This document shows, one piece after another, positions 8,357 to 64,000 of a stretch of DNA of 64,000 nucleotides. The notes below the pieces were generated by a model. It was not told the DNA's origin and did no database searches. It was given only the letters and a program-made list of their open reading frames with translations. The first letter of the stretch is position 1. Every line of letters begins with the position of its first letter. Source of the DNA: Candidatus Bathyarchaeota archaeon (GTDB lineage: Archaea; Thermoproteota; Bathyarchaeia; Bathyarchaeales; Bathycorpusculaceae); NCBI GenBank assembly GCA_963815095.1, contig CAWFFH010000004.1, positions 160,001-224,000 on the forward strand, given 5' to 3'. Position numbers and translations under genes: made by a program.

Positions 8357-8761
8357 TTAGCTGATGTATTTTGGTTTTTTGTTTTTTGCTATTTCGGTTT
8401 CTTGGGGTGGTAGGGCTGGAGTTTGGCTTTGGTTTATTTGTTCGCCTTGAGTGAGGCCTGCTTGTTCAACAAGTTTTTTGAAGATGATTTCAGCGACTTG
8501 GTCTCCGACAGATTCTTCTTTGAGTTCGTTGCTAAAGGCATGTTTTTTGAAGGATTCTACTATCTCATTTTTGTCTATTACAACGTTGGGTTTTGAGCTG
8601 TCGTTCCATGCTTGAGACATTACTTTGTGGCCTAATTCTATGAATATGTTGACCATTGTTGTGTAGTCTATGTCTAAGGGTGTGTCTCCAGTTAGGAATC
8701 GTCCCTTTGTGAGTAGGATTTTTTTGTCGTTTTCTGGGGTTACTGTTAAACTTCTACGCAT
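8357..8761 (-). CDS. Hypothetical protein, possible RHH-like regulator heading the grpE-dnaK operon
   Basis: ATG 8761 behind GGTGA RBS; N-terminal strand-helix-helix pattern MRRSLTV.PENDKKI..IDYTTMVNIFIELG. Confidence 0.55.
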   Translation of the reverse strand: MRRSLTVTPENDKKILLTKGRFLTGDTPLDIDYTTMVNIFIELGHKVMSQAWNDSSKPNVVIDKNEIVESFKKHAFSNELKEESVGDQVAEIIFKKLVEQAGLTQGEQINQSQTPALPPQETEIAKNKKPKYIS

Positions 8762-8953
8762 ATATTCACCAGTGTAAAAGTGCTTTATGCACCGCTTCAC
8801 CTGAAGCACACCTGTGCATGCTCGCTTATATGTTTTCTGGCAAAATAGAGGAAAAAGATATGCCTACAAGAACGAAATCGCAACCTCATTCATTTTATGA
8901 TTAACTTCAAATTGGAAGTTACGGATTATCCCAAAAGAATCTCTGCAAGCACT

Positions 8954-9295
8954 CTATGGTACTGGGGTAGGGGTAGGAATCAGGGTAGCATTTTCGATTA
9001 GGGTCATTTTGTTGTTGAAATCGATTCGGCAATCAAAAATGTAGCTTTGGTTTTCTTGGATGCGCTCGTATAGAGATGGATTATTCAGAATATACAGGGC
9101 TTGATTGTCTTGGAGATTAACGGTGTAGTTTGCTGGGTGGCTGTCTAAAATTGGTTCCTTTGAAACCACAAGTCCCCTTGTAACATCTGGTATTTTGGAA
9201 TTATCTATGGCATTCTCAGAAATGAAGATAATAGTTCCTAAAGTTGCAACAGAAACTAGTATGGCTACAACAACCACAATTTTGAATGCGTCCAT
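8954..9295 (-). CDS. Hypothetical membrane-anchored protein
   Basis: N-terminal TM helix, 113 aa. Confidence 0.6.
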   Translation of the reverse strand: MDAFKIVVVVAILVSVATLGTIIFISENAIDNSKIPDVTRGLVVSKEPILDSHPANYTVNLQDNQALYILNNPSLYERIQENQSYIFDCRIDFNNKMTLIENATLIPTPTPVP

Positions 9296-9402
9296 ACTAA
9301 TGCCCCAATAAATAAATGGTAAACGTTTGATTAGTATATAAAAATGGTGCCCTGCCCAATCAATCCTTCAGGCCGCTTAAATTGGAAGGATTTGCCAGGC
9401 CA

Positions 9403-12210
9403 CTAGTGCCTAAGCTGTTTCTTGATTGCTTCTTCAGCGGCTTGTACTGCTTGTGCGAGTTTGTCGGGTTTTGTCCCGCCGCCCTGCGCAAAATTGGGTC
9501 TTCCGCCGCCCCCGCCGCCAAAAATCGGCGCTGCTTCTTTCACTATGGCGCCTGCGTTGACTCCTTTTTGCACTGCGGCTTCTCCAGCCATAACCATTAG
9601 CTTACATGTTTTACCGTCTGATGCATAGAACAGAGTTACTGTGGTTTCATTTTTCTTTATGATTTCTGCTCCAGTTCGCAGCATGCGGTCTGCATCGATT
9701 ACCTCGCCAAAATCTCTTTTAACTATGGTAATTCCGTCGACTTCGGATGCGGCTTCACAGGATTGTGCATGTCCAACTGCACTTTCCTTCTCGGCCAACT
9801 CCTTGATTAGCTTGCGTTTTTCAGCATTAGCTTCTTTGAGTTCTTTAACCACCTTCTCGGCAGTTTTATCCAATTTATCAATGGGTGACGTTAGGGCTTC
9901 GGAGACTTTCAAAAGCAAACTCTCCTGCTCCTGCACAGCCTTCAAAGCTTTGAGCCCAACCGCATAGCCCAGCCGTTCCACACCATCCTGAACGCGTTCT
10001 GTGTAAATGATTTTTACAAAACCAACTTCACTGGTGCATCCAAGGTGTGTTCCTGCACAAGCTTCAACATCCCAATCGCCCGTTTTAACGACGCGGATGT
10101 CTTTGCCTGGAACTGCACCGCCCTGATACAGCCTGAAGCCGTAGCGTGATTCTGCTTCGTTGCGTGGGAGCCATGTGGTTTCTACTTTCATGTTGCTGCC
10201 AATGGCTTGGTTGGCGAGGGTTTCGATTTGGTGAATTTCCTCTTGACTTAACCTGCGGTAATGTGAAATGTCAAGGCGAGAGGTTTCTAAGCCTTTTTGG
10301 GTACCAGACTGCCAAACGTGTTCGCCCAGAACTCGTCTTGCGGCTCCGTTTATGAGGTGAGTCACTGTATGGGCTTTCATTAGAGCGTAGCGTCTTTCCC
10401 AATCGACTGTGCCGTGTACGATGACATTTTCCTTGAAGATTGCCAAGGTCTTGAGTTTGTGTACGATGACTTTGCCGATTTTCTGTACGTCAACAATTTC
10501 AAACTTTGAATCGCCAAAGGTTAGCCAGCCTTGGTCGGTTGGTTGTCCTCCGCCTTCAGGATACAAGCATGTCTTATCAAGTACCACGTAATTGCCATTG
10601 ATGATTTTGAGAACTTTAGAGTCAAACTCTTTTTGGTAAACGTCAGCATAATAGAGTTGCTCTGTTGCGGGTAGTTGTTCGGCCACTTTCTGTAGTGTCT
10701 GCTCAGCCTGCGTCTCTTCTTCCTCCGCTGGCTTTGGTGCCTGCATGTGACGGTTAGCAATTAGTGCATAAAAATTTTCAGGGACCTCAACTTCAATTCC
10801 TTCTTTTTCGGCGGCTTGCTTGACGATTTCTGGAGGGAGTCCATGTGAATCATAGAGCTCCGTGAGAGTGTCCATTGGTAGTTTGCCGGTGCCTTTGGTT
10901 TTGAGGTCTGCTGCAATGCGTTTAACCATGCCTTCGCCCCGCTTGAGAGTCTCCACGAACTTTTCTTCTTCGACTTTGAGCATTTCAATGATTTCGTTTT
11001 GCATTTCTTTTATCCGTGGGAAATCTTTGCCCCAGTACTCTGCTTGCATGTCGATGATGTCGTAGAGTTTGGCTGGTTCAATGTTGAGTGTGCGCATTAA
11101 TCGGTAAACTCGTCTGAATAGAAGTCTGGCGAGGTAGCCTTCTTGGATGTTGGATGGAACAACGCCTTCAGAGAGCATAAAACTGAGAGTTTTGGTATGG
11201 TCGGTTACCGCCCAAACGTTCTCGATCGGGATCAAGACTCTGTCGAGGGTTGCCATGTCGATGCCTGTTAACTCAGAAACTCGTTTGCGAGCGACAAGCC
11301 TGTTTGCACGTTTGTCAACGCTAACTAAACCTGAATATTTGGCTACACGTGCCAAAAAATCGTTGTCAACGTTGGTTATTCCCGCCATGCCCATTACCTT
11401 GTCGAGCAAATTGCCGTAAATAGCTTGGAACAAGCTTGGAACACCTTGGCTAATCCATGTGAAGCGGTCAATACCATATCCTGTATCTACGGTACGAATT
11501 GGCAACTCGATGAAGTCATCGCCGACAACCTTGTATTGCATGAAAACCAATGTGCCAACTTCTAAGCCACGGCAAATACATTCTACATCTGGACCAGCGT
11601 TTCCTCCGCCAACCCAAATGCCCTCCTTGTAGATAACTTCCTCAGACTTAATACCGAGGCATTCTGTAGCGAATCGGTGGTGGAAACGTACGGTGTCGTC
11701 TTTCCAGTAAATTTCTTTGTCAGGGTAGTTGAATGCGTGGGCGCCGCCCATTTCAAAGATGGTGAGGTGCCTGCCGAAGGTCGGCCCAGTGTTGGATATG
11801 TCTGTTAATCTGATGCATGGTTGGGAAATTACCAGTGGATTTGCTGGTGGAGGAGCAATTCCCTCAGTAACGTAGGGTTGAAAATCGATGATGCTTGCAT
11901 GAGTTAGGTAAATATCTTTTCTCCATCGTGCTACGACTGGGTATGGCTTAATCCGTGTATGACCATTCTTTTCGAAGAACGAGAGGAATGACTCCCGCAT
12001 TTCGGAGAGGCTGAACTTTTTGGTTGTTGCGGGGTTGCCAAGGAAAGTGTAACATCCGCATTCGTCTGAGCCAGATTCGCCGCAGGTTTCTTGCTCGGCG
12101 TTTTGGGTCCAGAAGTATTCGTCGCATTTTGGACAAAGTTTTCGGACAAAACCTTCTTGTTTGAAGAATGGAAGTGTGTAATCTTCTGCTGTGAACTTTT
12201 TTCCAACCAT
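9403..12210 (-). CDS. alaS: Alanine--tRNA ligase, archaeal type
   Basis: YPVVARWR, ASIIDFQP, QPCIR, DTGYG, editing HTVTH and CAGTH, GGGGGRPNFAQGGG. Confidence 0.98.
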   Translation of the reverse strand: MVGKKFTAEDYTLPFFKQEGFVRKLCPKCDEYFWTQNAEQETCGESGSDECGCYTFLGNPATTKKFSLSEMRESFLSFFEKNGHTRIKPYPVVARWRKDIYLTHASIIDFQPYVTEGIAPPPANPLVISQPCIRLTDISNTGPTFGRHLTIFEMGGAHAFNYPDKEIYWKDDTVRFHHRFATECLGIKSEEVIYKEGIWVGGGNAGPDVECICRGLEVGTLVFMQYKVVGDDFIELPIRTVDTGYGIDRFTWISQGVPSLFQAIYGNLLDKVMGMAGITNVDNDFLARVAKYSGLVSVDKRANRLVARKRVSELTGIDMATLDRVLIPIENVWAVTDHTKTLSFMLSEGVVPSNIQEGYLARLLFRRVYRLMRTLNIEPAKLYDIIDMQAEYWGKDFPRIKEMQNEIIEMLKVEEEKFVETLKRGEGMVKRIAADLKTKGTGKLPMDTLTELYDSHGLPPEIVKQAAEKEGIEVEVPENFYALIANRHMQAPKPAEEEETQAEQTLQKVAEQLPATEQLYYADVYQKEFDSKVLKIINGNYVVLDKTCLYPEGGGQPTDQGWLTFGDSKFEIVDVQKIGKVIVHKLKTLAIFKENVIVHGTVDWERRYALMKAHTVTHLINGAARRVLGEHVWQSGTQKGLETSRLDISHYRRLSQEEIHQIETLANQAIGSNMKVETTWLPRNEAESRYGFRLYQGGAVPGKDIRVVKTGDWDVEACAGTHLGCTSEVGFVKIIYTERVQDGVERLGYAVGLKALKAVQEQESLLLKVSEALTSPIDKLDKTAEKVVKELKEANAEKRKLIKELAEKESAVGHAQSCEAASEVDGITIVKRDFGEVIDADRMLRTGAEIIKKNETTVTLFYASDGKTCKLMVMAGEAAVQKGVNAGAIVKEAAPIFGGGGGGRPNFAQGGGTKPDKLAQAVQAAEEAIKKQLRH

Positions 12211-46521: not shown

Positions 46522-46599
46522 TGGTGGACCGGGCCGGATTCGGACCGGCGACCTTCTGCACGTCAAGCAGATGTCCTAACCAGGCTAGACGACCGGTCC
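46522..46599 (-). tRNA. tRNA-Val(GAC), CCA encoded
   Basis: GGACCGG acceptor stem, TCTGC-TTGACGT-GCAGA anticodon arm, GCCGG-TCCGAAT-CCGGC T arm, ACCA end. Confidence 0.95.
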
Positions 46600-51295: not shown

Positions 51296-54200
51296 ATGGG
51301 TTTGTGTGTGAAGTTAAAAAAAGTCGGTTCGAACCTGCAAATTTCTTCTGATATCAAAGTTGCAAATGTGTTTCCAATTGTTGGGATTGGCGCTTCTGCA
51401 GGCGGATTAGACCCCATCAGGAAGTTTCTGGAGAATTTGCCTATTGATATGGGCATGTCTTTTGTTGTAGTCCAGCATTTGGCTCCGGGACAAGAAAGCC
51501 TTCTTCCTGAAATCCTTTCAAGATCCACTAAAATGAAGGTTTTGCAAGTTCAAGATGGCATGCAAATTGAACAGGATAAGGTCTACGTAATTACTCCAGC
51601 AACAACCATGACGTTGAAAAACGGACAACTCAGACTTGTTCCCAAAGGTTTGGCTCTCAAGCCCATCAACGACTTTATGATCTCCTTAGCATCCGAGCGA
51701 AAAACCAAAGCAATCGGAATTGTTTTGTCAGGAACTGGCAATGACGGAACCGAAGGATTAAAAGCAATCAAAGCCGAAGGCGGATTAACCTTTGCACAAG
51801 ACCCGGAAACAGCACAATATCCCGACATGCCCAAGAACGCCATAGCTGCAGAAGAACCGGATTTTGTCCTTTCACCAGAACAGATAGCCCAAGAAATAGT
51901 TAAGATCGGCAATCACCCTCAACTCAAACATTCCGAAATGTCGGCCAAACAAGAAAAAACCGAGACCGACTTGAAGAAAATTATCATGCTGCTAAAGTCT
52001 TCTTTTGGCGTTGATTTTACCCATTACAGAGACACAACAATTGACCGACGCATTACACGACGCATGGTCATTAACAAGTCAGAAAACATGACGGCATATG
52101 TCGAGTATTTGCGGAAGAATCCGAGTGAGCTGCAGTTATTGTTTGACGACCTGTTAATTGGCGTAACAAGCTTCTTTAGGGAACCGGACACTTTCGTGGC
52201 ATTGAAAGAAAAAGTTTTTCCAGAACTCATCAAGAACAAGTCACCCAACGAATCCATACGAGCTTGGATTCCAGGCTGTTCCACAGGAGAAGAAGTCTAT
52301 TCTTTTGCCATAACAATTCAAGACTTCCTAGAAGAAAAAGGCATACCCGAGATAAGGGTTCAAATTTTTGGAACGGATGCAAATGAGAAAAACATTGAGA
52401 AATCTCGACAAGGAACCTATCCAAAAAACATAGAAGACAACGTCTCCGAAAACAGGCTAAAACGATTCTTCACTTTCTCCAACGAACATTATCGGATAAC
52501 AAAAACTATTCGTGACATTTGCATTTTTGCAAAACAGGACATTACAACTGATCCTCCTTTCTCCAACATAGATCTCATTATGTGCAGAAATGTGCTTATT
52601 TATTTTGATTCTTACCTTCATGAAAAAATATTGCACATTTTCCATTATGGCCTAAAAACGAATGGTTTTCTAGTTCTGGGCGAGGCTGAAAGTGTTGGCA
52701 AGTTTCAGTATCTGTTTCAACCAATTATTCCAGGAAGCCTAATTTTCCGGAAGAAACAAGCCCAACCACAGGTATTGTTAGGTGAAGAAGTCTTTGTTCC
52801 TCACTCTATGAAGAAAACTGCTGAACCGCTTGAAAAAGCAGACTTGATATCGGTTTTGAGCGAGAAAGTTGATCATCTTATAACATCGGAGTATGGACCG
52901 GCGACTTTGTTGTTGAACAACAACTTGGATATACTGGTGTTTCGCGGAGATGTTGCTCCTTTTCTTTCGCCCGAATCGGGAGTCGCGAGCTTTAACGTAA
53001 CCAAGATTGTTCGCAAAGAGTTGAGGTCGCAAGTTCAGACTGCTTTGTATAGGGCAAGAAAAGAAAAGAGAGCTATTAAAGAAACGGTGGGTTTCAAACA
53101 AAAAGGGCAATCAAAGACAGTTAACATCGAGATAAGACCATTAGAAACAGCACAGTTCGAAGAACCGTTCTACCTTGCATTATTTACTGAAGGACCCACG
53201 CGCGATGCTTCTTTAGCTAAAGAAGTTGAATCTGTTGTTTTGCAAGGTGAGGCGGAGAGCCTTAAGGATCGTCAGATTCGTGAACTCGGAGAGGATTTGG
53301 ATGCAACTAAGCGATCTTTGCAGAGTCTTATGGAGGGGCAGCAGGCGACTAATGAGGAGTTGCGGTCGTCTATGGAGGAGGTTCAGTCGAGCAATGAAGA
53401 ATTGCAGAGTACAAATGAAGAGTTGGAAACCGCAAAGGAGGAGCTGCAGTCAGGCAATGAGGAGCTGCAGACTCTTAACGAGGAGCTTAAGAACCGCAAT
53501 CAGGCTCTTGGTCGCCTAAACGATGACCTAACTAACTTGCAAACGAACATTGACCTTCCCGTGGTTATTGTCGATAATGAGCTTAAGATTAGGCGTTTTA
53601 CTGTTTCAGCTCAAAAACTTTTGAAGATTTCGCCATCCGATGTTGGGCGGCCTATTACCGATTTCAATCTGGGCGTTTATGCTGTTGATTTAGGAAAGAC
53701 AATCTTGGATGTTACCACTAAGTTAGCTGGTGTTATTCAAGAAGTTGCTTGCGCCGAAGACCGGTCGTGTGAGATGAGTGTTCGACCGTACTTGACTGAG
53801 GAGAAAAAGATTGACGGGGCAGTTCTATCCTTCACGGACATAACCGAACGCAAGAAAATGGCGCAAGAGTTATCTGTCTCTCTCGAAGATTCACAGCGGC
53901 GTGAGTCTGAGATTTCAGCCTTATTGAAATCATCAAAAGTAGTTTTGCAAAACAAAGAATTTCCGGATTCGGCGCGAGCAATATTTGACGCTGCCAAAGA
54001 ATTAATTGGAGCCACAGCTGGCTATGTCGCCCTCTTAAGTGATAACGGAAGAGAAAACGAAGTCTTGTTCTTGGATGCTGGAGGGCTTCCTTGTACGGTT
54101 GATCCTTCGCTTCCGATGCCTATTCGTGGACTCCGTTCTGAAGCGTACAACTCTGGGAAAGTGGCAGTTGAAAATGATTTTAACAAAAGTGAATGGAAGA

Positions 54201-55180
54201 AATTTATGCCTGATGGTCATGTGCAACTCAAGAGTGTATTGTTTGCACCATTGATGATTGAACAGAGAGCTGTCGGGGTAATCGGGTTAGCTAATAAACA
54301 GGGTGGATTCACCAAACGTGATCGCGAAATGGCAATGGCGTTTGGAGAAATTGCCTCGGTTGCCTTAGCCAACAGTAAAATGCTTGAGATGCTGGAAGAA
54401 AATGAAAAAGAGTTAAAGAAGCACTCTGAGCATTTGGAGGGGCTTGTTGAGGAGCGAACCAAGCAGCTTAAAGATTCTGAACGCTTGGCGGCTATTGGTG
54501 CAAACTGCAGGCATGGTTGGGCATGATATTCGAAATCCTCTGCAAGCTATAACTGGCGATGTATATTTGGCTAAAACAGAATTAGCTTCAACGCCTGAGA
54601 GCGAAGAGAAAAAGAGTGCATTAGAAAGTCTTACAAGAGATTGAGAAGAACATTGATTACATTAACAAGATTGTGGCTGATCTACAAGATTTTGCAAGAC
54701 CACTTAAGCCAAATGCAGAAGAAACCGACCTAAAACCGTAATTGATGAACTTACTATCGAAAAATGGTTTACCCGAGAACGTTAAAGTAAGCGTTAAAGT
54801 TGAAGCTGAAGCTAGAAAAATTGTGGCTGACTCTACTTTCATTAACCGCATTATGTACAATTTGGTTAATAATGCTGTTCAAGCGATGCCAAAAGGCGGC
54901 AAACTAACTATACACGTCTACAAAGAAGCAAAAGATGTCTTAATAACTGTCAAGGATACAGGCGTTGGCATTCCTGAAGTATGTAAAAAGCAAATTGTTT
55001 ACGCCTATGTTCACGACTAAAGCTAAAGGTCAAGGCTTCGGCTTAGCTGTGATTAAACGTATGACTGAAGCATTAGGCGGCACCGTAACTTTTGAGAGCC
55101 AAGAAGGCAAAGGAACAACTTTCAAAGTACGTTTGCCCCCCCCCAAAGAGCTAAACGGTAAATTGGTCTACAAGCATTGA
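51296..55180 (+). CDS. CheB-CheR-PAS-GAF-histidine kinase hybrid (3' part frameshifted)
   Basis: GASAGG/QHL/GTGNDG (CheB); VTSFFRE, GCSTGEE, CRNVLIYF (CheR); NEELQS coil; GHDIRNPL, NNAVQAM, DTGVG, GQGFGL in successive frames. Confidence 0.88.
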
Positions 55181-55229
55181 AATAAGCTTAAAGGAACTCA
55201 AATTCTTAATTCTGAAATTTCTTAATTTA

Positions 55230-55469
55230 TTAGATATTCTGAATTACCACAAACCCTTCCAATTCTTTTAGGAATAGTTTATGTTTTTTCAGAATTGGTG
55301 CAATACTTTGTTTTGAAGTGCTATCGACAGAGCAGTTTATTTTTATCTCGAACTCTTTTGATGAGATGGAAGTTTCCGGGTTATCTAAAGAAACGCTGTT
55401 CATTGTCACGGATTCTTTGAACGCTTCTAGGATTTCGTGAAGCACAGCGAGGGCTTCTGCTCTATCCAT
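55230..55469 (-). CDS. Hypothetical protein, 79 aa
   Basis: Clean ORF. Confidence 0.6.
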   Translation of the reverse strand: MDRAEALAVLHEILEAFKESVTMNSVSLDNPETSISSKEFEIKINCSVDSTSKQSIAPILKKHKLFLKELEGFVVIQNI

Positions 55470-55608
55470 ACTCGCCAGTCCCAGTTGTGATTATTGATTC
55501 AATTTGTATTTATGTTTTGTGCGTACCCACTTGAACCTATTAGATAGTTAAAAATGAGAATCCAATTCTATGTCAACTCTCAGTTTAAATGTTACCTTAA
55601 AATCGTCT

Positions 55609-56149
55609 CTAAATGTGAATGTTTTTTAGACGTTTGATACTCGATTTTAGAGAATTCCTAAAGCAGTAAGAACATGAAAAATTATCACTAAGAAAAACAC
55701 CATAACTAAAGCTGGCGTGAATAAATTGGTTAGTCTTATGGTCTATTTGCTTTACTAAAGGGAATCTTTCTGCGAAACCTGTTGTCACTTCCAAAGTTAA
55801 TGCAATGTACAGGATTAAGCCTGTTCCTAACGCTGGGTAGAATGCTATTGGTCTTCCCAGTTGAGCTGCAAAATGAATTGAGATTAGTGAAAAGAAGAGA
55901 AGGTTTCCAAAGATGTGGTACCTAAGGAGCCCCTTAAACTTTTAAGGGGTAAAAACGCTTTAAGACCACGAATGCTGGAGTATCGATTGCAATGTAGCTT
56001 GTGCCAATTATGGAGAGCCAATGGCTAAAACGAAGAGGACCAACAAAGAAAAGCACGTTTAGAAAATGTAGGTATGCAGAAACCATAAGCGAACCTGCTA
56101 CTAAGACAATTAACAGTGCCAGCAAGAACTCAGAATCTTTGAAATTCAC
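55609..56149 (-). CDS. Multi-TM His-containing protein, ferric-reductase/cytochrome-b-like (frameshifted)
   Basis: ORFs 55934-56149 and 55609-55794 joined via LLRYHIFGNL..SIHF; several TM His. Confidence 0.5.
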
Positions 56150-56250
56150 TAAAATCCACTAACTTAACTGATGAACAACCGAATATAAAAGTTACTTGAA
56201 GAGCAGCGCCTTGAGATGTCAACTCAACTCGCTCCTTGCAATTTAGCGCT

Positions 56251-56391
56251 CTAATTCTTTTGTTCAGACAAAACGTTCTCAAAATGTAGCTCTATGTATT
56301 CGCTTCTTGATCTTTTCTGCTTGGAAGCTTCTTTGTCTATCTTCTCTAAAACGCGGTTAGAGAGGGCTATGCTTACTGGGTGTTTACGCAT
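56251..56391 (-). CDS. Ribbon-helix-helix (CopG/Arc-like) regulator
   Basis: MRKHPVSIALSNRVLEKIDKEASKQKRSRSEYIE. Confidence 0.85.
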   Translation of the reverse strand: MRKHPVSIALSNRVLEKIDKEASKQKRSRSEYIELHFENVLSEQKN

Positions 56392-56420
56392 AAATCCTGA
56401 CCCTTTGAATATTTGCCGCT

Positions 56421-56455
56421 TGTTAATATTTAACAATTGCTGTTAAGGCTTAACA
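56421..56455. promoter_or_regulatory. Two TGTTAA-N3-TTAACA operators, 20 bp apart
   Basis: 56421-35 and 56441-55, between the divergent RHH and protease genes. Confidence 0.75.
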
Positions 56456-56492
56456 ACAGCCTTTTTCAGCAAAATAAGCCTAATTCTGCCTT

Positions 56493-57244
56493 ATGACCCA
56501 GGATAACTGTAACGGTTGCAAGCATGTTCGAGAACATGTAGCTTCCCTTTTACCCTTCAAAGTTTTAGAATCAATCGCAGACAAACCCTTGCGTATTGGT
56601 GGAGTTGCAATGGCTCCGGGCTGTCTCGAAATTTCAATGTTTACACGCCTGAGGAACTTGGGATTTTCGCAGAGAAGCTAGTTAATGCTCCAGTGTATAT
56701 TGAGCATGTTGCTGTTGAAACTGCCTCTGGAAAAGTCACGAAATGCACATACGATGCGGCAACTCGCAGTCTGCTTTATGAAGCTGAGATTTACGATCAA
56801 GCGATTGCGGATAAAATTCGCAACGGTCTCATCCAGCACGTTAGTGTCGGCGCCGACTATGACTCACTTGATGTAGTTGACGCCAAAGTTCCTCATGGGC
56901 TTTTCAATCCTGAACTGTCCCTTGTAGCTGTTCCGGGCATTCCTGAGACAAACGTGCATGTGATAGAGCGGGTTGAGGAGAAACAGCTTCAGGAAAAGCT
57001 CGCTCAAAGAGAATGCAAGTTAACTGAAGCGCAAACAACAATTGAGGATTTACGCAAGCAATTGCCCAGTGCCAGTTTGCTTAAGAATCCGCCTAAAATG
57101 ATGCCTGTTTCTGAGCATGTTTCTGAGGTAAAGGGCTTGCTGTCACCTTTGATGGTTGAGCGCAGTTCCATGTTTGCCATGCGGAAACAGCAAGAGATTA
57201 GAGCTGTTCTGTTTCGTGCTAAAGAAAAGTATGGAGTGGACTAG
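56493..57244 (+). CDS. HK97-type prohead protease with C-terminal scaffold-like coil (frameshift about 56620)
   Basis: I.GVA..SRN..Y..EEL, PV.IEH, VSVG, ELSLVAVPG. Confidence 0.8.
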
Positions 57245-57327
57245 CTGTGTTTTTGCTCACTTTTGTGGGGAAGAGTACCAAAGGACGAACTTTGGGAAAT
57301 TCAAAAAATTTAATCGATTTGATTTGA

Positions 57328-57756
57328 ATGGCCGATAAAACAGGCAAAGCTTGGATGGCTGCAGGAGAAACAGACGACCCAAACGCTATCATAGAATCTT
57401 TTGAAGCAGCAGTCGGCGTCACTAAAGGCTCACCGGTTTACTTGAGCGCTGACGATAAGGTCTCGCCAAGTCCAGGCGGAGACGACGCAATTGGCATAGC
57501 AACTAAAACTGTTCTGGCAACCGAAATATGCCCAGTTCTAAAGCGTGGACGAGTCAAAGTCACTGTAGATGGAGCTATAACACGTGGAAAAGCGGTGTGT
57601 GGTGCAGCTAACGGGAAAGTTACTCAATTCGTTGACCAAGCGGTGAACGAAGGCGGAGCAGCAACTTTAACCATCTTCTACAATCGCAAATTAGGCACAG
57701 CGCTTGAATCTGCAACAACTGACGGCGATTTCATCTTCATCAATGTGGAGAAGTGA
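57328..57756 (+). CDS. Capsid cement/decoration protein (DUF2190-like)
   Basis: A...VTKG.PV..AIGIA..GRVKV...GAI..G..V..G.V..G.ALE.A..GD.I. Confidence 0.7.
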   Translation: MADKTGKAWMAAGETDDPNAIIESFEAAVGVTKGSPVYLSADDKVSPSPGGDDAIGIATKTVLATEICPVLKRGRVKVTVDGAITRGKAVCGAANGKVTQFVDQAVNEGGAATLTIFYNRKLGTALESATTDGDFIFINVEK

Positions 57757-57760
57757 TTGC

Positions 57761-58724
57761 ATGAAACCTAAACTATTCGAAGCTCTACAGATAGCACGAT
57801 TCTGAACAGAAGCGCGTCTATGAAGACCTAAAACGCAAACTTGAGGTGAACCCGTTTCTTAAGCGCTATGTTGCTGTGGGCGTAAAAGAAGGATTCTTTA
57901 GCGACTCGGCAAATGCGCTTGGACGCGTGCATGACACTATGGTTGAAGCTGCTTGGCCCGAACTAATAGGTAGAAGCATAATCAACGTTATGCCGACCAA
58001 TGAAGCAATGGAGCGTTTCCCACTCGACGAAGACGCAGTTGCTTATCAATATGCTGAAGGCGCAGTCGTACGCTTAAGCGGCAAAAAACCCAGCAAGGTT
58101 GACATATACACAAATATCACCGTAGAGTCAGGCGATGAATGGACCAAAGAGTTCGATGAAGACGCAACCTGGAACGTTATGGACCGCATGGTGAGCAACG
58201 TTGGCAGAGCAGTCGGAGTCAAGGAAACCCAGAAAATTCATATCCCTCTATGCTGCTATCGCTGATGCTGATTTGGCGACTGGTGCAGTACTTGCCGGCG
58301 GCGGTGCAGTGTTAAGTTGGGCGTCAACTTTTATCGTTACATTATGCGGTGCGCAGTCAGAATTGGAAGCCAAATGTTTTGGCAATCAATGAGATGCAAC
58401 TGCATCAGTTGCTAAACGATGAGAACTTTATGAAACGGAGTTATGCTGCCAAGTACGCAAACTGACATTGACCAAGGATCCATCGGTACGATATTGGGTA
58501 TGAAGGTTCAAGCCAGCACTGGAGATTCCAAACGGAACAGCCTACGCAATTAGACACACGAGTTGCTACTGTGATGCTTCTACGAAGAGACGTCACTGTG
58601 GAAGACTGGGAAGACGTCAAAAACAGGCAAGTACGGCATCCGAGGCACCACCCGCTTTGGGTTAGGCATTTTGCGCTCCAAAGCTATTGCCAAGATGACC
58701 AACATCAAAGCAACACTAACCTAA
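57761..58724 (+). CDS. Major capsid protein, HK97-like fold (several frameshifts)
   Basis: AEGA E-loop region, EFDEDATWNVM helix, G.ILGMKV, C-terminal YGIRGTTRFGLGILRSKAI; position after protease and cement. Confidence 0.75.
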
Positions 58725-58794
58725 AAGCGCTTCAAAAACCATCAACATTTCCCTCTTTTTTTGGGATTGAATAAAAATCAAGGTAATCTACGTC

Positions 58795-60042
58795 ATGAGT
58801 AAAGTCATCAGAAAAATCCGTGAGGTCCTCTCTTATGCGCCTGCTTCTGGCGTGGCAACTCCAAATGGCAGAGTGTTCTTTGACACTTCCTGCATTCCCT
58901 TAGCAGATGTTATGAAGCTCTATGACCGAGACCCAACCTGCAAGAGCAGCGTGGATTTATTGGCTGCTTCAACAGTTGGCATGGGCTTCTACACCACTGT
59001 AGATGAGAAATACGAGAAGGCAGAAGCGAAGCCAAAGCCGCCGTTGATAAGTTCTGTGAAGACGTCAACTTGATGGCTTACTAAATGATATGGCTAAGCC
59101 TTTGATTGGCTGCGGCAACGATTTTTGGCTTAAACTCACGCCTGAACAAGCTAACGGATACTCTGCGTATGCCCATCGATGCAGTGCAACGCATTGGACT
59201 AAGCTCTGTTCCCAACTTGAAATTCCCTACAAAGTTACGGGTTACCAACTTCAAAGCACCTATGGCGGCAATGCTGGAAATGAGCTTAAGCCTGAAGCGG
59301 TTATCCATTGGCGCCTTAACGGTGATGTTCCTTCGGGTTTTGGTGTTGGACTTGCTGCAGGTGCTCTTGCACACCTTAACCATTGACACCGATAAGCGCC
59401 CTTCTGACGCTTGGATGAAAGCCAAGATAGAGAAAATTCTGCCCAACATATTCACAAAGTACGCTGGACCGGACGTTGTGGTGCAACTGGAAGGCCAGAA
59501 AGAGGACACCATCAAAAAGTATGAAACGGCAATCAAGAATCGACCTGAAGAGGGGCAGTGGCTTTTCAGTGGCGCCAAAACCGTCGGCGTAAATCCAGTA
59601 ACTATTGACCCAAGAGCACGCTTCGAGTACTACATCGACCACATGGTTAACCAATTCTATCTCGGATGCGAAACGCCATTGCCACGGTTGTTTAGCACTC
59701 CAGGCTTTACCGAAGCAAGCGCAAAAGCTGCGCTAGAACTTCAAGATATGCTCATAAAACCCGTCCAGCGCTACATCAAGCGCCAAGTCGAAAAAGAACT
59801 TTTCGCCCTTGTTGTTGCTCAAGGCGGGTTTGATGCCGCCAAAGCTAAGGTAAGATTGAATTTTGGCTAGTCCCAAAACACCTGAACTAGTCCTAACCGA
59901 TCTCATCAAAGCAGCTGAACTTGGGTTAGTTCGAGCGGAAGAATTCCGAAAGAACGCAGTAAAATTCGGTTGGGAACTCTGGGACGATACTTCACAGAAA
60001 CGTAGTCAAAGTAACACATCAGATAGCAAGGGAGGTGATTGA
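58795..60042 (+). CDS. Portal protein (several frameshifts)
   Basis: Y..DP..KS.VD.LA..VG.GF, LIGCGNDFW, VIHW..GFG.GL, IKPVQR..KR.VE. Confidence 0.7.
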
Positions 60043-60235
60043 CACGGCAATCTTATCGAACAATGAAGAAGGGTTTATTCTTGGAATCGCAGAAGCAAGC
60101 GGAGCAGGAGCAGCGTTCTTAGCAACACAGCCAGTTGACCCAGCCCTCAAAGTTGCAGCATGCGGCATTTTGGGCTTTATCAGCGTAACGCTCAACGCTT
60201 TCTGGTTCAAATACGTAAAACCAGCTTCTTCTTAG
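60035..60235 (+). CDS. Small 2-TM protein (holin-like)
   Basis: Two hydrophobic segments, 66 aa, within the virion module. Confidence 0.45.
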   Translation: MIDTAILSNNEEGFILGIAEASGAGAAFLATQPVDPALKVAACGILGFISVTLNAFWFKYVKPASS

Positions 60236-60398
60236 GCTTTTTTGGCTTGACACGGCTCACTTGAGGGGCTGTGCAAGAATCCAAACAAGAGGGAACAAGC
60301 AAGATGACGAGAGAATCAAAAGTTGCAGATGTGGCATTTAGCGGAGCGTTTGGACTTAGCAATCAGTTCATTATTGTTCCTTTGGGGGCATTCATAAC

Positions 60399-60752
60399 TT
60401 GGCTTCTGTTTCAGTTGATGACGTTCGGGATGTCCTTTACATATTAGCGATTCCGATATTCCCGACGCTAAAATCTTAAAAATGATTAAACGCGCATCTG
60501 TGACCTTGGCACTTGAGCTATCTGAAAACATCGATTATTCAAATTGTTCAGACTCTCAAAAGGAAGGCATAACGCTTCTGGCAGCTATCTATGCGGTCTG
60601 CTACTTAACTGGCGGCTCAGCAATCGGCTTAAACTTTCAGCGTCGGCGACCTAACAAGCTCAACATCATCTTTACCAAGCTTAACAGTTTTGCAAACGGA
60701 GTTCGAACGGATTCTTGCTAGCCTCAAAGAGCCTTATGTGGGGAGCGTGTAG
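60399..60752 (+). CDS. Head-tail adaptor-like protein (frameshifted)
   Basis: VS.DDVR..L.I..DIPD..I..MIKRA..AA..S.S.GD pattern, about 115 aa helical. Confidence 0.6.
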
Positions 60753-60754
60753 AG

Positions 60755-62150
60755 ATGGGAACCGTTCCTGAAGCCTATTATCAGTTTATAATGGACTATG
60801 CGCCCATACGTTTACATTATTCCGCCAAACACACCAGACCCAGCATATGGAAAAGGCGTTTTAGCAGCTAGCTTCGCTATCGACTTTTTATGTGAAGCGT
60901 ATTCTGCCAATCAGTTTGAGGACAGAAAAGAAAGAGGTCTATGACAAAATCGTAAGTTTAGCTGATTGGGTTCTAACCCAGCAATGCATCGACCCAGCAA
61001 GGAAGGCTTATGGCGGTTTCAAAAGCGCAGAAAACAGCACTTACTATTACAGCGTGGATGCTTGCAGAGTTATTCCTTCACTTCTAAGAGCCTATGAACT
61101 CACAAACTGATAGCCGATATTTAGACACTGCAAAGCTTGCTGGTGGAACTTTTCTTAAAACCATGCAGGACCAGCAATCATACGGCGGCTTCGCTAGAGC
61201 AGTAACTATCGGCGATGCTTGGCTTTTGCAGATGGACGTCGAATGCCTCTATGGATTAATCGGTTTGAATATGTTGGCGGAAAAGCACGATGTCCCAAAC
61301 TCTGTAGTCTACCAGGATATTATGAGTAAAGCGATCGGTTTTCTAGGGAACGGCTTTGAGAACCTTTGGCTAAGCTATGACCCTTCAGATGGAAAATGGC
61401 ACCGGGTTGGCTTAAATGAGAACGAGGTTTATGATGACCCGTTCGCCTATGCTTTGCTTGGATTATATGATTTTGAAGGCTGGAGCGCAAGCTGCCAAAG
61501 AGTCTACAATTGCCTAAACAGCATAAGAGCAAACGCAAAATATCCAGCTTATAATCCTGCAGTTTGCTGGGCAGGATACATAGATATCATTAGCCGATTC
61601 TCAGCATGCGATTATTACGATGCCGTCACAAGCGGAATTTTATGGAAAATCCGCAGCAACCACGACAAACCAAGTCTTGAATTTAGCATCAAAGTCCTCG
61701 AGAAGCATAGCGAGGAATTCATGTTCTGGGGCGCCAAACACGCAGACTACAGTTATGTTGAAAACAAGCAGGCTATGGTTACCGTTTGCTGGCTTGCGCA
61801 CTTATTCCTCAACTATGAAGAACCCTCAACCCACATTCACAAGGATTTTAAAAAGCAAGGGTGAGACAATTCAGCTTTATCCGATCAGGCAAGCTGCCGA
61901 CACTTTGGATTATGGTGAGCCACTGGATTTGTTAGCTACTGTTTCTGCTTTGAAAGAAGAGCAAGTAATGCTTGAAGCAGGCTACTACCTAAACGACTAC
62001 ATCGCATTCTACACGTTTCTTCCAGTTCGGGTTCATGACAAAATAAGGCGCCAAGGCGAAGACTACGAAATCCAAACAGTAACACCCTACATTTTTGCGA
62101 ACCAGCGGATTTACTTCAAAAGCGTAGCAAGGAGGCTGATTGGCAATTGA
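60755..62150 (+). CDS. Alpha/alpha-barrel domain fused to head-closure-like domain (frameshifted)
   Basis: LADWVLTQQ..GGF and FLKTMQ..GGF repeats; C-terminal GETIQLY..V..HDKIRRQGEDYEIQTV. Confidence 0.6.
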
Positions 62151-63168
62151 GCGTGGTCGAAGTTGAGAATCCCGTCGTAACTGTTCTGCGCTTAATTGAA
62201 TCCCGAATTAGGGTTGTTAAAGACGATGGCGGATTAGCAAACATCCGGTGTTCGCAAGCAAACTATGACCGCGAACTCCTAAAAGACGTAGACGCCCAAA
62301 TTACACTCTCCAAAACCACTGACCCATGCCTACCCCAAAAACACACCTTGGATGGAAAGTTAAGGCGCCGCATCTATTCGCTAAGAGCAACAATCTTTGC
62401 AATCGATAAGCCAACTCCAAGCGCCGATGTTGGCAGAGTTATGCGAGACAAAATTCTTGAACAGCTGCTTTTGATTGTTCCTGAAAACCGCAACCTACCC
62501 TACAGAACCATCTACAACTTTTACCCACTAAACTCAACGTCTACAACTCACAAAGCCTACACTGCAGCAGCTTTGGCGGAACTTGAACCCTCAAGCGCGT
62601 CTTGGGTAGAACTGTCTGATTTGGAATATCCAAACCTTTGGAGCAGTGACGACGTTAGGCACTCTAAAAGCGCAAGCGGCATCAATGAATTTGCGTTTAT
62701 GCTATTCCGCTTCAAAATCGGTTCTAAAGCTGGAGAAACCCGCAATGAACCCCGAAAACAGTGCTTAAAGCGCGTAGTCTTGTCCTTTGAAGGCTACGGG
62801 ACTGCACCCATGGGAAACGGTTTAACCTGCAAAGTCTGGGATAACGTGGCGGGCGCATGGACTAATCCCCAAAGTAGCGTTTCAGAAACAGATGAAACCA
62901 CAACCATCACACTTAACGTCAAATCTAACCAACTACGTCAATGATGACGGCTACCTCTACTTATTGGCACAGACAACCCATTCAAGCGATGGAAACACAC
63001 CGCCGTTTTGTACTGCGATTTTATCCAAGCAACCGTTGACGTGCGAGGCATAACGTTTTGTGACGTGCACAGTTACCGAGACATCGACGTTGTTGATGTC
63101 AAACCCTTCCTCTACAAAGAAGAAATCATCTCATGGCATGGCTCTTCGAGTCCATAGCCATCTCATAG
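62147..63168 (+). CDS. Tail terminator-like protein with inserted beta-sandwich domain (frameshifted)
   Basis: Position before tail tube; alpha/beta N-part, beta-rich insert, C-terminal strands to TAG 63168. Confidence 0.5.
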
Positions 63169-63184
63169 TCATAGGTGAAACCGA

Positions 63185-64000
63185 ATGGTTGACACATATC
63201 ACTCCGACCAAGAAAAATTCTATTACGTGACCGAAGGCTCCTTCGGCGTTGTTCCAGCGACTCCAGCGATGCTTGGGCACTCCTGCAGCAACATTGACCC
63301 GGACATAAACCCAAACAACATCAGAGTTCCAGGAACAGGTTCAGTGGATGCGGTAGCGCTTAAACAAGGCTTAAGACAGCCCACGCTGCAATTGAAGTAT
63401 CCGATTCCTTCAGATGCACCAATTAATCTTTTGCAGTATGTTAAGCAGGAGCTAAACAACAGCCTCACCCTCCAGGTGCTCTACTACAAAGACATTTTCG
63501 CCACAGCAACCGACATCATAAGCCTACTCTATAAGGGCGCACGCTTCAACAATGCAACGCTCACATGCGACATAGACGGTCTTTTGGAGTGCGAAGCAGA
63601 ATTTCTAGCCCAAGACATCGAAGTAACCACAGCTAAAATCGCAGATGCAACCTACACCGATTATGCTGGCGCCGTTTCAGGCAGTGAAAGCTACGTCAAA
63701 ATAGGCGGTGTATCTTGTGAGCGGGTTACTTCTTGGAAACTTTCAGATTGACAACTCTTGCAAACCTGTCCCAGTCATCAGATCAGTCAATGGGCACTTA
63801 GCCAAGTACATCCCATGGGGCAAGCGTCTTCTAACTGGAGAATTGAACTTTGAGTTTGAAAGCAAACAAGAAGCCGACGACATTTTAGCCGACACAGAGC
63901 AATCCAGCTTAGAGTTTGGGCTTGGCGGAGCCAACAAAGTTAATGTTGCTTACGCAAAGTGGGATGATTTTTCTTTGAGCGGTAAATCTGAGGATTTGAT
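63185..64000 (+). CDS. Major tail tube protein, siphovirus-like (frameshift about 63740; truncated by window)
   Basis: YY.TE.SFG..P; two similar beta-rich halves (..LQLKY.. and ..SWKL.IDN..G.R.LTGELNFEF). Confidence 0.7.

Follow-up and report, generated by a model that had tools for sequence, protein, structure and literature searches.

Glycan-directed modules occur away from the tail tip in several systems, such as the neck appendages of phi29, the neck passage structures of lactococcal phages and the head spikes of the gene transfer agent RcGTA. In all of these the module is a separate protein placed on the collar or the head. The neck itself is closed by the stopper, or head-closure protein, a hexamer that lies under the dodecameric adaptor and holds the packaged DNA until the tail joins (PMC12886913). 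Ordinary stoppers of the SPP1 gp16 kind are proteins of about 100-130 amino acids (aa). In Staphylococcus phage 812 the core barrel of the stopper gp97 (PDB 8qgr, 8q01) has a small beta-sandwich added to it, which lies on the outside of the neck and bears no likeness to an enzyme (PMC12886913). Here we describe a gene from a head-tailed (Caudoviricetes) provirus of Bathyarchaeia, which we call the toroid-stopper gene, whose product, unlike gp97, begins with an (alpha/alpha)6 barrel of 330 aa, in which a polar pocket is conserved, and ends in a predicted stopper domain. The gene lies at 60755-62150 on the + strand of a 64,000-nucleotide stretch, referred to throughout as the window, from Candidatus Bathyarchaeota archaeon (assembly GCA_963815095.1, contig CAWFFH010000004.1, positions 160,001 to 224,000). 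In contrast to the modules of phi29, the lactococcal phages and RcGTA, the module here is found within the stopper polypeptide.

The virus group to which this gene belongs has already been published. One of the related loci that we examined (L021) is Bathyarchaeia tailed provirus 1 (BATPV1), an element of 33,358 bp in which gene 14 (8642-10033, 463 aa) corresponds to the window gene as its orthologue (PMC11705971). The published table names that gene 'N-acetylglucosamine-2-epimerase, 6F04_A, 99.65' and the BATPV2 orthologue 'Glycoside hydrolase family, 4MU9_A, 99.64, C5-epim_C', labels that refer to the enzyme-like part only (PMC11705971). In the BATPV1 table the adaptor is followed by the epimerase-named gene and no head-closure or stopper gene is listed, and the terms 'stopper' and 'head closure' are absent from the main text of that paper (PMC11705971). 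No description of a stopper-toroid fusion was found by full-text literature searches, and such a protein goes unmentioned in the accessible text of Duan et al. (PMC10848311) and of PMC13573593. PMC5797428 was set aside as irrelevant since it concerns YyaL in a conjugative element. Among GenBank phage records, tblastn with an intact relative (P0005, introduced below) gave 0 matches in 50,697 records at E<=0.01. A preliminary description of the window, made from its letters and open reading frames, had held that no such neck architecture was known, which is too strong given the external beta-sandwich domain of the phage 812 stopper (PMC12886913); an enzyme-like toroid on a stopper was not found in the published literature. 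What we have not found in print is the recognition of the 'epimerase' as the stopper itself; the virus group and the enzyme-like label had been reported before.

The window gene runs from an ATG at 60755, which the adaptor gene precedes with its end 2 nt upstream, to a TGA at 62148-62150. No single open frame crosses 60755-62150 on the + strand, and one gene is instead spread over five frame pieces in the order frame 2, 0, 1, 2, 0. The pieces are separated by four +1 frame changes (one extra base each) at about 60803, 60927, 61108 and 61835. Threading was based on tblastn with the intact paralogue of the same genome and on frameshift-aware alignment to the BATPV1 orthologue, and the two agree on the order; the alignment to the BATPV1 protein placed the frame changes in the following list.

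60755-60802, +, frame 2: piece 1, start codon and N-terminal helix (MGTVPEAYYQFIMDYA)
60803, +: frame change 1, +1
60804-60926, +, frame 0: piece 2, first toroid hairpin
60927, +: frame change 2, +1
60928-61107, +, frame 1: piece 3, toroid with the LTQQ..AYGGF motif
61108, +: frame change 3, +1
61109-61834, +, frame 2: piece 4, remainder of the toroid, with the family-wide W-x-R, YDD, CW.GY, YYD and W residues
61835, +: frame change 4, +1, the one already noticed in the preliminary description
61836-62150, +, frame 0: piece 5, linker helix and stopper (head-closure) beta-barrel, with the stop TGA at 62148-62150

When threaded across the frame changes, the window protein is identical to the BATPV1 protein at 380 of 463 residues. 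The individual pieces are 75-93% identical to single 463-aa open reading frames (ORFs) of other genomes, which places the feature far beyond chance. Helical repeats of about 350 aa do lead into a domain of about 105 aa, as had been described, and the motifs quoted for them are present, LADWVLTQQ..AYGGF in frame 1 and FLKTMQ..YGGF, VYDD and DYYD in frame 2. A single frameshift near 61830 had been reported; a frame change is indeed found there, placed at 61835, and it is one of four. The stopper domain had also been said to have no convincing separate start and ribosome-binding site. Its frame does contain an ATG ahead of the domain, at 61815, so that the window by itself leaves room for a separate start; unbroken relatives, which encode both parts as one ORF, settle the matter.

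The toroid-stopper fusion is real and is a single ORF, since unbroken relatives keep both parts in one frame. The same genome holds an unbroken 537-aa paralogue (P0005, C4:29134-30747), which is about 45% identical to the window pieces. A search for related loci with a single protein as query returned no relative; with a family alignment (A1) as query it did, and a scan of genome_contigs found 86 stretches that encode relatives, from which 80 loci were kept. The toroid and the C-terminal domain share one uninterrupted frame in 67 of these 80 loci from Bathyarchaeia metagenome-assembled genomes (MAGs). Among the other 13, six are cut at a contig end or within 60 nt of one, two are frame-shifted (L018, L074), three are truncated or interrupted (L067, L069, L071) and two diverge past residue ~500 within longer ORFs (L054, L066). 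Two complete neighbouring genes in place of the fusion, the arrangement that the preliminary description had named as counting against it, were found at none of the 80 loci. One of the interrupted loci, L067, has its stopper domain cut after about 20 residues (11000-11600); an N-terminal sequence resembling an integrase then follows in a different frame, possibly because another element inserted into the gene.

Protein and virus collections give the same picture. With P0005 as query, a word-indexed search (E<=0.001, among 8000 scored candidates) gave 662 protein matches, mostly of 525-547 aa; few of them are named, and these are 'hypothetical protein' of Bathyarchaeota. The 256-aa piece of the window gave 703 matches among proteins of 449-2000 aa; all of the 120 matches listed are 450-470 aa long, most of them exactly 463 aa, and the best is 81% identical. 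In IMG/VR, alignment A1 found 221 stretches that encode relatives, and 74 of the 80 kept match from residue 1 to at least residue 534, as scored by residue span and not by reading frame. The single ORF is thus kept in hundreds of viral and proviral sequences. Two forms occur, a long form of about 540 aa with a beta insertion of about 70 aa after the first helix, and a short form of 463 aa that lacks this insertion and to which the window copy belongs. The N-terminal helix is kept in all family members (alignment A1). The domain order is first barrel helix, optional beta insertion, toroid, linker helix and stopper beta-barrel. Stand-alone proteins of 97-111 aa that start at the border of the C-terminal domain (P0181, P0203, P0204, P0218, P0223, P0224 and P0245, from a 50%-identity protein library) indicate that this domain is a module which was fused by the Bathyarchaeia virus lineage.

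To describe the folds we modelled the 537-aa paralogue with AlphaFold2 from an alignment of 31 sequences (mean pLDDT 87.3, pTM 0.88). By DSSP the model has a helix at residues 3-12, a beta domain at 17-90, eleven helices within 98-425, a linker helix at 433-441 and a beta-barrel at 443-533. Foldseek against the PDB matched the toroid to (alpha/alpha)6 sugar enzymes, with a best E of 6.5e-7. In the VIA comparison the best match was 3ren_B (Z 28.2, root-mean-square deviation (rmsd) 3.2, 301 residues aligned), followed by cellobiose 2-epimerase 5zig_C (Z 27.7, 325 aligned), many AGE-superfamily members at about 26, glycoside hydrolase (GH) families GH88 at 24.7 and GH76 at 23.8, PssZ at 23.4 and YteR and 4mu9 at 23.1, with rank 50 at 22.7. 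These alignments cover 286-336 residues at an rmsd of 3.0-3.9 and an identity of 6-14%, and their ranges in the model begin at residue 1. Because they do so, the conserved N-terminal helix would be the twelfth helix of the barrel and the beta domain of the long form an insertion into it. The model accordingly shows a twelve-helix (alpha/alpha)6 barrel, and the alpha/alpha toroid of the six-hairpin glycosidase kind proposed beforehand is borne out as a fold by both search methods. AGE-superfamily epimerases and isomerases, the GH8-like CPF_2247 and PssZ, GH88/GH105 and GH76 share this barrel at Z 28-23. The Bathyarchaeia domain differs from all of them in its low identity, in having no conserved histidine and in being fused to a virion protein. 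Since the Z values are tied and the identity is only 6-14%, the fold class is clear and the enzyme family is not.

All of the best 50 solved-structure matches in VIA are carbohydrate-active or uncharacterised toroids, and the same holds for the top Foldseek matches, with four complement C3/C5 chains as the exception. Neither method has a prenyltransferase or terpene cyclase in its 50 listed rows, a result that does not exclude families outside those rows. Glycans or isoprenoid lipids had been suggested as the target of the toroid; because the best 50 VIA matches are sugar enzymes or uncharacterised and no prenyltransferase is listed, the models favour glycans over isoprenoid lipids. Sequence comparisons give similarities below threshold only. 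No Pfam enzyme family was found in the window pieces; C5-epim_C reaches 17.8 and 21.6 bits, below its cut-off of 23.3, and PF06662 is precomputed on a minority of relatives. Against PDB sequences the matches range from E 0.009 to 0.07, among them GH76 at E 0.0088 and a D-glucuronyl C5-epimerase at E 0.05, and Atlas leads scoring below 0.9 are clusters named Pec_lyase, GH127, GH88, GlcNAc 2-epimerase and GH47. The insertion of the long form resembles the K1-lyase 'Rider' family (PF24149), at 25.6 bits against a cut-off of 27 in P0124, on which the family is also precomputed. Relatives of this insertion form part of large proteins that also contain Laminin_G_3, DUF2341 and heparinase II/III domains.

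The C-terminal domain was modelled apart, from the last piece of the window gene and 19 relatives (alignment A2), with a pLDDT of 88.8. The model is a small beta-barrel of about 100 residues such as stopper proteins have. Foldseek E-values for it are weak (at least 1e-3), and the rows are neck proteins. The best VIA match is the Pam3 neck chain 8hdr_A (Z 12.6, rmsd 3.1, 97 of 110 residues aligned), followed by Pa193 (10.7), XM1 (10.6), the phage 812 stopper (9.9-10.0, its crystal structure 8qgr at 9.9), the T1 stopper-terminator entry 9l0e (9.8), the RcGTA virion chain 6tba_3A (9.2) and the SPP1 gp6/gp15/gp16 connector chain 7z4w_1 (8.4); the nuclear magnetic resonance model of gp16 gives 6.0. 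Thirty chains reach a Z of at least 8, and all belong to neck assemblies of phages or gene transfer agents (GTAs) except three structural-genomics singletons, 2kz4, 3f3b (PBSX XkdH) and 2pp6. In BFVD, the matches to this domain (about 110-130 aa) carry the names head-tail joining protein, closure knob, SPP1 head-tail adaptor and COG5614. The proposed likeness to SPP1 gp16 has therefore held up, with Z values of 12.6-8.4 to neck chains that include the SPP1 connector. A separate observation from BFVD concerns its best match, F9VHN7, an unnamed viral protein of 585 aa for whose accession a literature search found nothing; with 520 aligned columns, a TM score of 0.44 and an rmsd of 14, it may have a similar two-domain build.

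Gene order agrees with the fold. The closest intact relatives of the window element (L021, L040 and L065, 75-81% protein identity) share an order that begins with the head maturation protease, scaffold/cement protein, HK97-type capsid, a 411-aa protein, the adaptor and the toroid-stopper. It continues with a 340-aa gene, the tube (Phage_tube_2), a chaperone and an HK97 gp10-like tail completion protein, and ends with a 193-aa protein, a 531-aa tail protein, a helix-turn-helix protein and the terminase large subunit TerL. In L021, L040 and the window the toroid-stopper lies directly 3' of the head-tail adaptor and before the tail tube. The names given in the BATPV1 table are portal for the 411-aa protein, tape measure protein for that of 193 aa, Mu gpP-like for that of 531 aa and 'phosphodiesterase' for that of 340 aa (PMC11705971). 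In its C-terminal barrel of about 100 aa and its place after the adaptor the gene resembles SPP1 gp16 and other phage stoppers, from which it differs by the 350-440 aa of toroid ahead of the barrel and by the lack of a Pfam family match. By modelled fold and position the C-terminal domain is a predicted stopper outside the curated sequence families.

Conservation was read from an alignment of 26 sequences, including toroid-only homologues at 22-30% identity, in P0005 numbering. Eight residues are invariant in all 26 (G270, W288, Y324, Y360, Y361, D362, G367 and L369), all of them kept by the window copy, and seven more are at least 90% conserved (R290, D301, E314, Y339, G347, Y348 and W398). 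The model places these residues on a single face of the barrel, where the inner helices start and in its long loops. The (alpha/alpha)6 glycosidases hold their active sites on that same face, and the conservation pattern points to a ligand site on the toroid. No conserved histidine was found in the toroid, either in alignment A1 or in the 26-sequence alignment. AGE enzymes use a histidine pair, and its lack here speaks against the AGE-type epimerase chemistry of the published table. The more distant toroid-only homologues (P0147-P0209, 380-460 aa) share the W-x-R, D and YYD residues and match no Pfam model. Their hydrophobic N-termini, which resemble signal peptides or lipoboxes, suggest an extracellular and uncharacterised family that is probably secreted.

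We favour the reading, with a rough probability of 0.55, that the product is a stopper enlarged by an N-terminal sugar-enzyme-like toroid and that the toroids form a collar which binds or cleaves glycans. As in other tailed viruses, a ring of six C-terminal barrels would lie beneath the adaptor and seal the portal channel once the DNA is packaged, and around it the six toroids would stand out from the neck to make the collar. The conserved toroid face (W288, R290, D301, Y360, Y361, D362 and W398) would bind a glycan of the host surface, for example an S-layer glycan or an extracellular polysaccharide, and perhaps cleave or epimerise it. In this way the collar could help a short-tailed virion, with its tape measure of 193 aa, to adsorb to the host or to cross the glycan layer. 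More tentatively, a glycan-active enzyme or primary adhesin on the head-closure ring might, in a large group of tailed Bathyarchaeia viruses, be a catalytic collar that does for these short-tailed virions the work of the tailspikes or tail fibres of bacterial phages. The toroid might then stand for a carbohydrate-active family that is new and that secreted proteins of bacteria share, with its substrate in the Bathyarchaeia envelope; we regard this wider proposal as doubtful at present.

Several observations weigh against a glycan-active collar. Neck display and the hexamer are features that we infer only from fold and gene order, and a toroid at the neck would sit about one tail length from the tail tip, where a role in adsorption is not obvious. 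For the toroid, no GH, polysaccharide lyase or epimerase Pfam model rises above its cut-off, and with Z values tied across families at such low identity a catalytic mechanism is not assignable. A comparison with catalytic residues as generally known for these families (the AGE His pair, GH8 Glu/Asp, GH76 Asp-Asp and GH88 Asp), made from the lists of conserved residues, gave no conserved histidine but an invariant D362 and near-invariant D301 and R290. The C-terminal domain (P0002) has no Pfam match at E<=1, receives only phrog_939 'head protein' (E 0.012) from PHROGs and, as a 20-sequence profile, finds no neck protein among PDB sequences, where the matches are chance ones with E of at least 0.28. 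The same beta-barrel fold also occurs, at lower Z (6-7), in Dit-like proteins of the tail tip. Finally, the window gene is broken four times in an element that lacks terminase and integrase, and for these reasons this particular copy makes no virion.

The main rival, which we consider unlikely, gives the toroid neither catalysis nor a role with glycans: it would be a structural collar or a docking platform that reinforces the neck or holds fibres or whiskers. The phage 812 stopper bears its external beta-sandwich, and the neck decoration proteins of that phage have been proposed to reinforce interfaces (PMC12886913); a toroid without an assignable catalytic family or an enzyme Pfam match above cut-off would suit such a role. 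The conserved residues, however, are polar and aromatic and lie at helix starts and loops, as expected of a ligand site and not of a spacer, and the structural neighbours of the toroid are sugar enzymes. It is very improbable that the locus makes two products, a soluble enzyme and an ordinary 111-aa stopper initiated at the ATG at 61815. That in-frame ATG and the stand-alone 97-111-aa proteins beginning at the domain border are what one would cite for it, but in 67 of 80 loci the frame passes from one part to the other without a stop, the 120 relatives listed hardly depart from a length of 463 aa, and no motif resembling a ribosome-binding site was seen before 61815. Even if used, such a start would supplement the fusion protein and not substitute for it.

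Equally improbable is the reading behind the published label, in which the product would be a cytoplasmic auxiliary metabolic enzyme, an N-acetylglucosamine 2-epimerase, and no part of the virion. It draws on the HHpred-type labels of BATPV1 (6F04_A, 99.65) and BATPV2 (4MU9_A, 99.64) (PMC11705971) and on the AGE-family epimerases among the best structural matches. Those matches are tied with GH8-like, GH88, GH76, GH63 and GH105 proteins, however, the toroid has no conserved histidine, and neither the C-terminal stopper domain nor the position amid head-tail joining genes suits a metabolic enzyme. Least probable of all is a toroid that acts on isoprenoid lipids in the manner of prenyltransferases or terpene cyclases. 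The fold class is common to both, and one Atlas cluster is auto-named 'prenyltransferase/squalene oxidase repeat' (0.89, a lead only), but the Pfam content of that cluster is Pec_lyase, neither Foldseek nor VIA has such an enzyme in its 50 listed rows, and no Pfam prenyltransferase repeat is found at E<=1 in the window pieces or at E<=0.01 in the relatives.

The toroid-stopper gene of the window belongs to a provirus remnant, whose extent and nearest genes, together with the indel-rich zone that overlaps it, are listed here.

56493-64000, continuing to about window-equivalent 66047 (L004:1-2047), +: truncated provirus remnant, by comparison with BATPV1 proteins
60399-60752, +: head-tail adaptor upstream of the toroid-stopper, itself frame-shifted (weak match to phrog_541; published annotation of the orthologue)
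62147-63130, +: 340-aa gene downstream, of AF_1625_C type, frame-shifted in the window copy and overlapping the toroid-stopper stop
54444-64000, continuing to about window-equivalent 64497 (L004:497), +: indel-rich zone of about 10 kb, recognised by frame changes
54444-54641, +: HisKA domain of a host sensor kinase
54742-55017 and 54965-55177, +: halves of the HATPase_c domain of that kinase, which with HisKA occupy three further frames

Within the window the remnant holds genes for the protease, scaffold/cement protein, HK97-type capsid, portal, adaptor, toroid-stopper, 340-aa protein and tube. Past the window end follow the chaperone, the HK97 gp10-like tail completion protein, the short tape measure protein and the first ~171 residues of the gpP-like protein, after which no terminase or integrase is found before the host proteasome alpha gene. 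The 340-aa gene (window 62147-63130; L021:11317-12339) occupies the place expected for a tail terminator; its Atlas clusters are all PF27237 AF_1625_C and mostly viral, and its published 'phosphodiesterase' label was not reproduced by a PHROGs hmmscan, which gave only phrog_5793 at E 2.8e-4. A tRNA-Val (GAC) gene at 46522-46599 on the - strand, adjoining a 416-aa gene with DUF2400 and endonuclease-like matches, lies outside the remnant, which begins 10 kb further on.

Relative to the BATPV1 proteins, the virus genes from 56613 to window-equivalent 64497 carry 29 frame changes, 22 of them '+1' and 7 '+2'. They fall in the capsid (7), portal (6), adaptor (3), toroid-stopper (4), 340-aa (3), tube (1), chaperone (4) and protease (1) genes, a further change in a badly aligned part of the protease being left out of the count, while the scaffold, gp10-like and tape measure genes have none. 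No in-frame stop occurs inside the aligned bodies of the virus genes; the alignments show three '*', each in the first 20 positions and no later than the likely start. The zone begins in a cellular gene, since the host CheB/CheR-PAS-GAF sensor kinase gene (51296-54526, +) is broken in its 3' part by three +1 steps, and it ends before the last three virus genes. We think that the four shifts of the toroid-stopper gene are probably errors of the assembly consensus and not real decay, because the changes are indels only and biased towards insertion, nonsense codons are lacking, the invariant residues are kept and the zone ignores the borders of the element. Homopolymer errors, in runs of C or A at the four shifts, were considered as a source and set aside, the longest run within +-8 nt of the 29 sites being no different from background. 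A fraction of 0.06 of the sampled words was present in the public run X1, whose four contig pieces reach 11 of 30 bins without spanning any of the four shifts. One X1 piece, from a related copy, stops at 61833 with a loose end that continues in frame, which is not decisive for the window copy.

The opposing reading, which takes the window copy for a truly decayed pseudogene and all its shifts, these four and 25 more in the element, for genuine mutations of a dead remnant, seems to us the less probable of the two and is far from negligible. The element is truncated, its gpP-like gene aligning to about residue 171 (window-equivalent 66047) with no terminase or integrase after it, the C-terminal half of the protease aligns poorly, and the indel sites are not enriched in homopolymers. 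Coding density is mostly normal across the 2.69-Mb assembly, where 43 of 2643 6-kb windows are low and merge into 12 stretches, and in other genomes 2 of 80 loci are frame-shifted and 3 truncated. For 29 indels in about 8 kb, however, we estimate that decay at any usual substitution-to-indel ratio should have left several nonsense codons in the gene bodies where there are none. Identity to BATPV1 is still 70-89% for the capsid, portal, toroid-stopper, 340-aa, tube and chaperone proteins (about 63% for the adaptor and 57% for the protease), none of the invariant residues of the toroid has been lost, '+1' shifts outnumber '+2' shifts by 22 to 7 and the zone starts in the host kinase gene. Whichever origin the shifts have, the surrounding element is a truncated remnant.

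Matches at E<=1e-10 are found in 10 of 151 sampled genomes of the class and in 0 of 5 other genomes of the genus of the window. Among those 10, the toroid-stopper is present in G000, G082 (two copies), G086, G090 and G103. Several MAGs hold 3-7 copies, and those with 4-7 often combine long and short forms (L008/L014/L028/L059; L015/L016/L046/L056; L013/L021/L030/L031/L041/L042/L057), which suggests repeated integration of related viruses. The patchy distribution and the multi-copy MAGs argue for a mobile, frequently integrating virus group and not a domesticated element. A domesticated GTA-like element had come into question with the window element at about 10 kb and its relatives in multiple copies; it was rejected, as intact relatives have terminase and integrase and the distribution is patchy.

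Other observations concern the genomes and contigs in which these genes lie. In G000, the genome of the window, the stretch C4:28763-36000 (L002, L003) holds the second, long-form copy, the intact 537-aa toroid-stopper, with a 340-aa-type gene and tube, chaperone, gp10-like, tape measure and gpP-like genes; tblastn found no capsid, portal or protease beside this copy, and a TerL relative lies at C3:853502-854920. Elsewhere in G000, C3:323001-335000, C3:1487001-1519000 and nine other stretches are poor in long open frames, those of 120 codons or more taking up less than 45% of their bases. The contigs of L005, L006, L017, L051 and L054 and of protein P0283, about 1.5-24 kb long, are labelled Gallionella, Bipolaricaulis, Dehalococcoidia, Methanocella or Chloroflexi, for which mis-binning is the likeliest explanation.

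The published epimerase and glycoside hydrolase labels mask what is the sole stopper of these viruses, and the window illustrates how a local indel-rich stretch of an assembly can mimic a decayed provirus. If the proposed glycan-binding or glycan-cleaving collar is correct, these virions would be armed through the head-closure ring instead of the tail tip, an arrangement of which we found no description. The finding would be of greater interest still should the toroid turn out to act as an enzyme on the envelope of Bathyarchaeia. In sediments these archaea rank with the most abundant ones, and a virion protein that is conserved, easy to recognise and furnished with a pocket like that of sugar enzymes offers a direct handle on their envelope and on the way in which their viruses attach.

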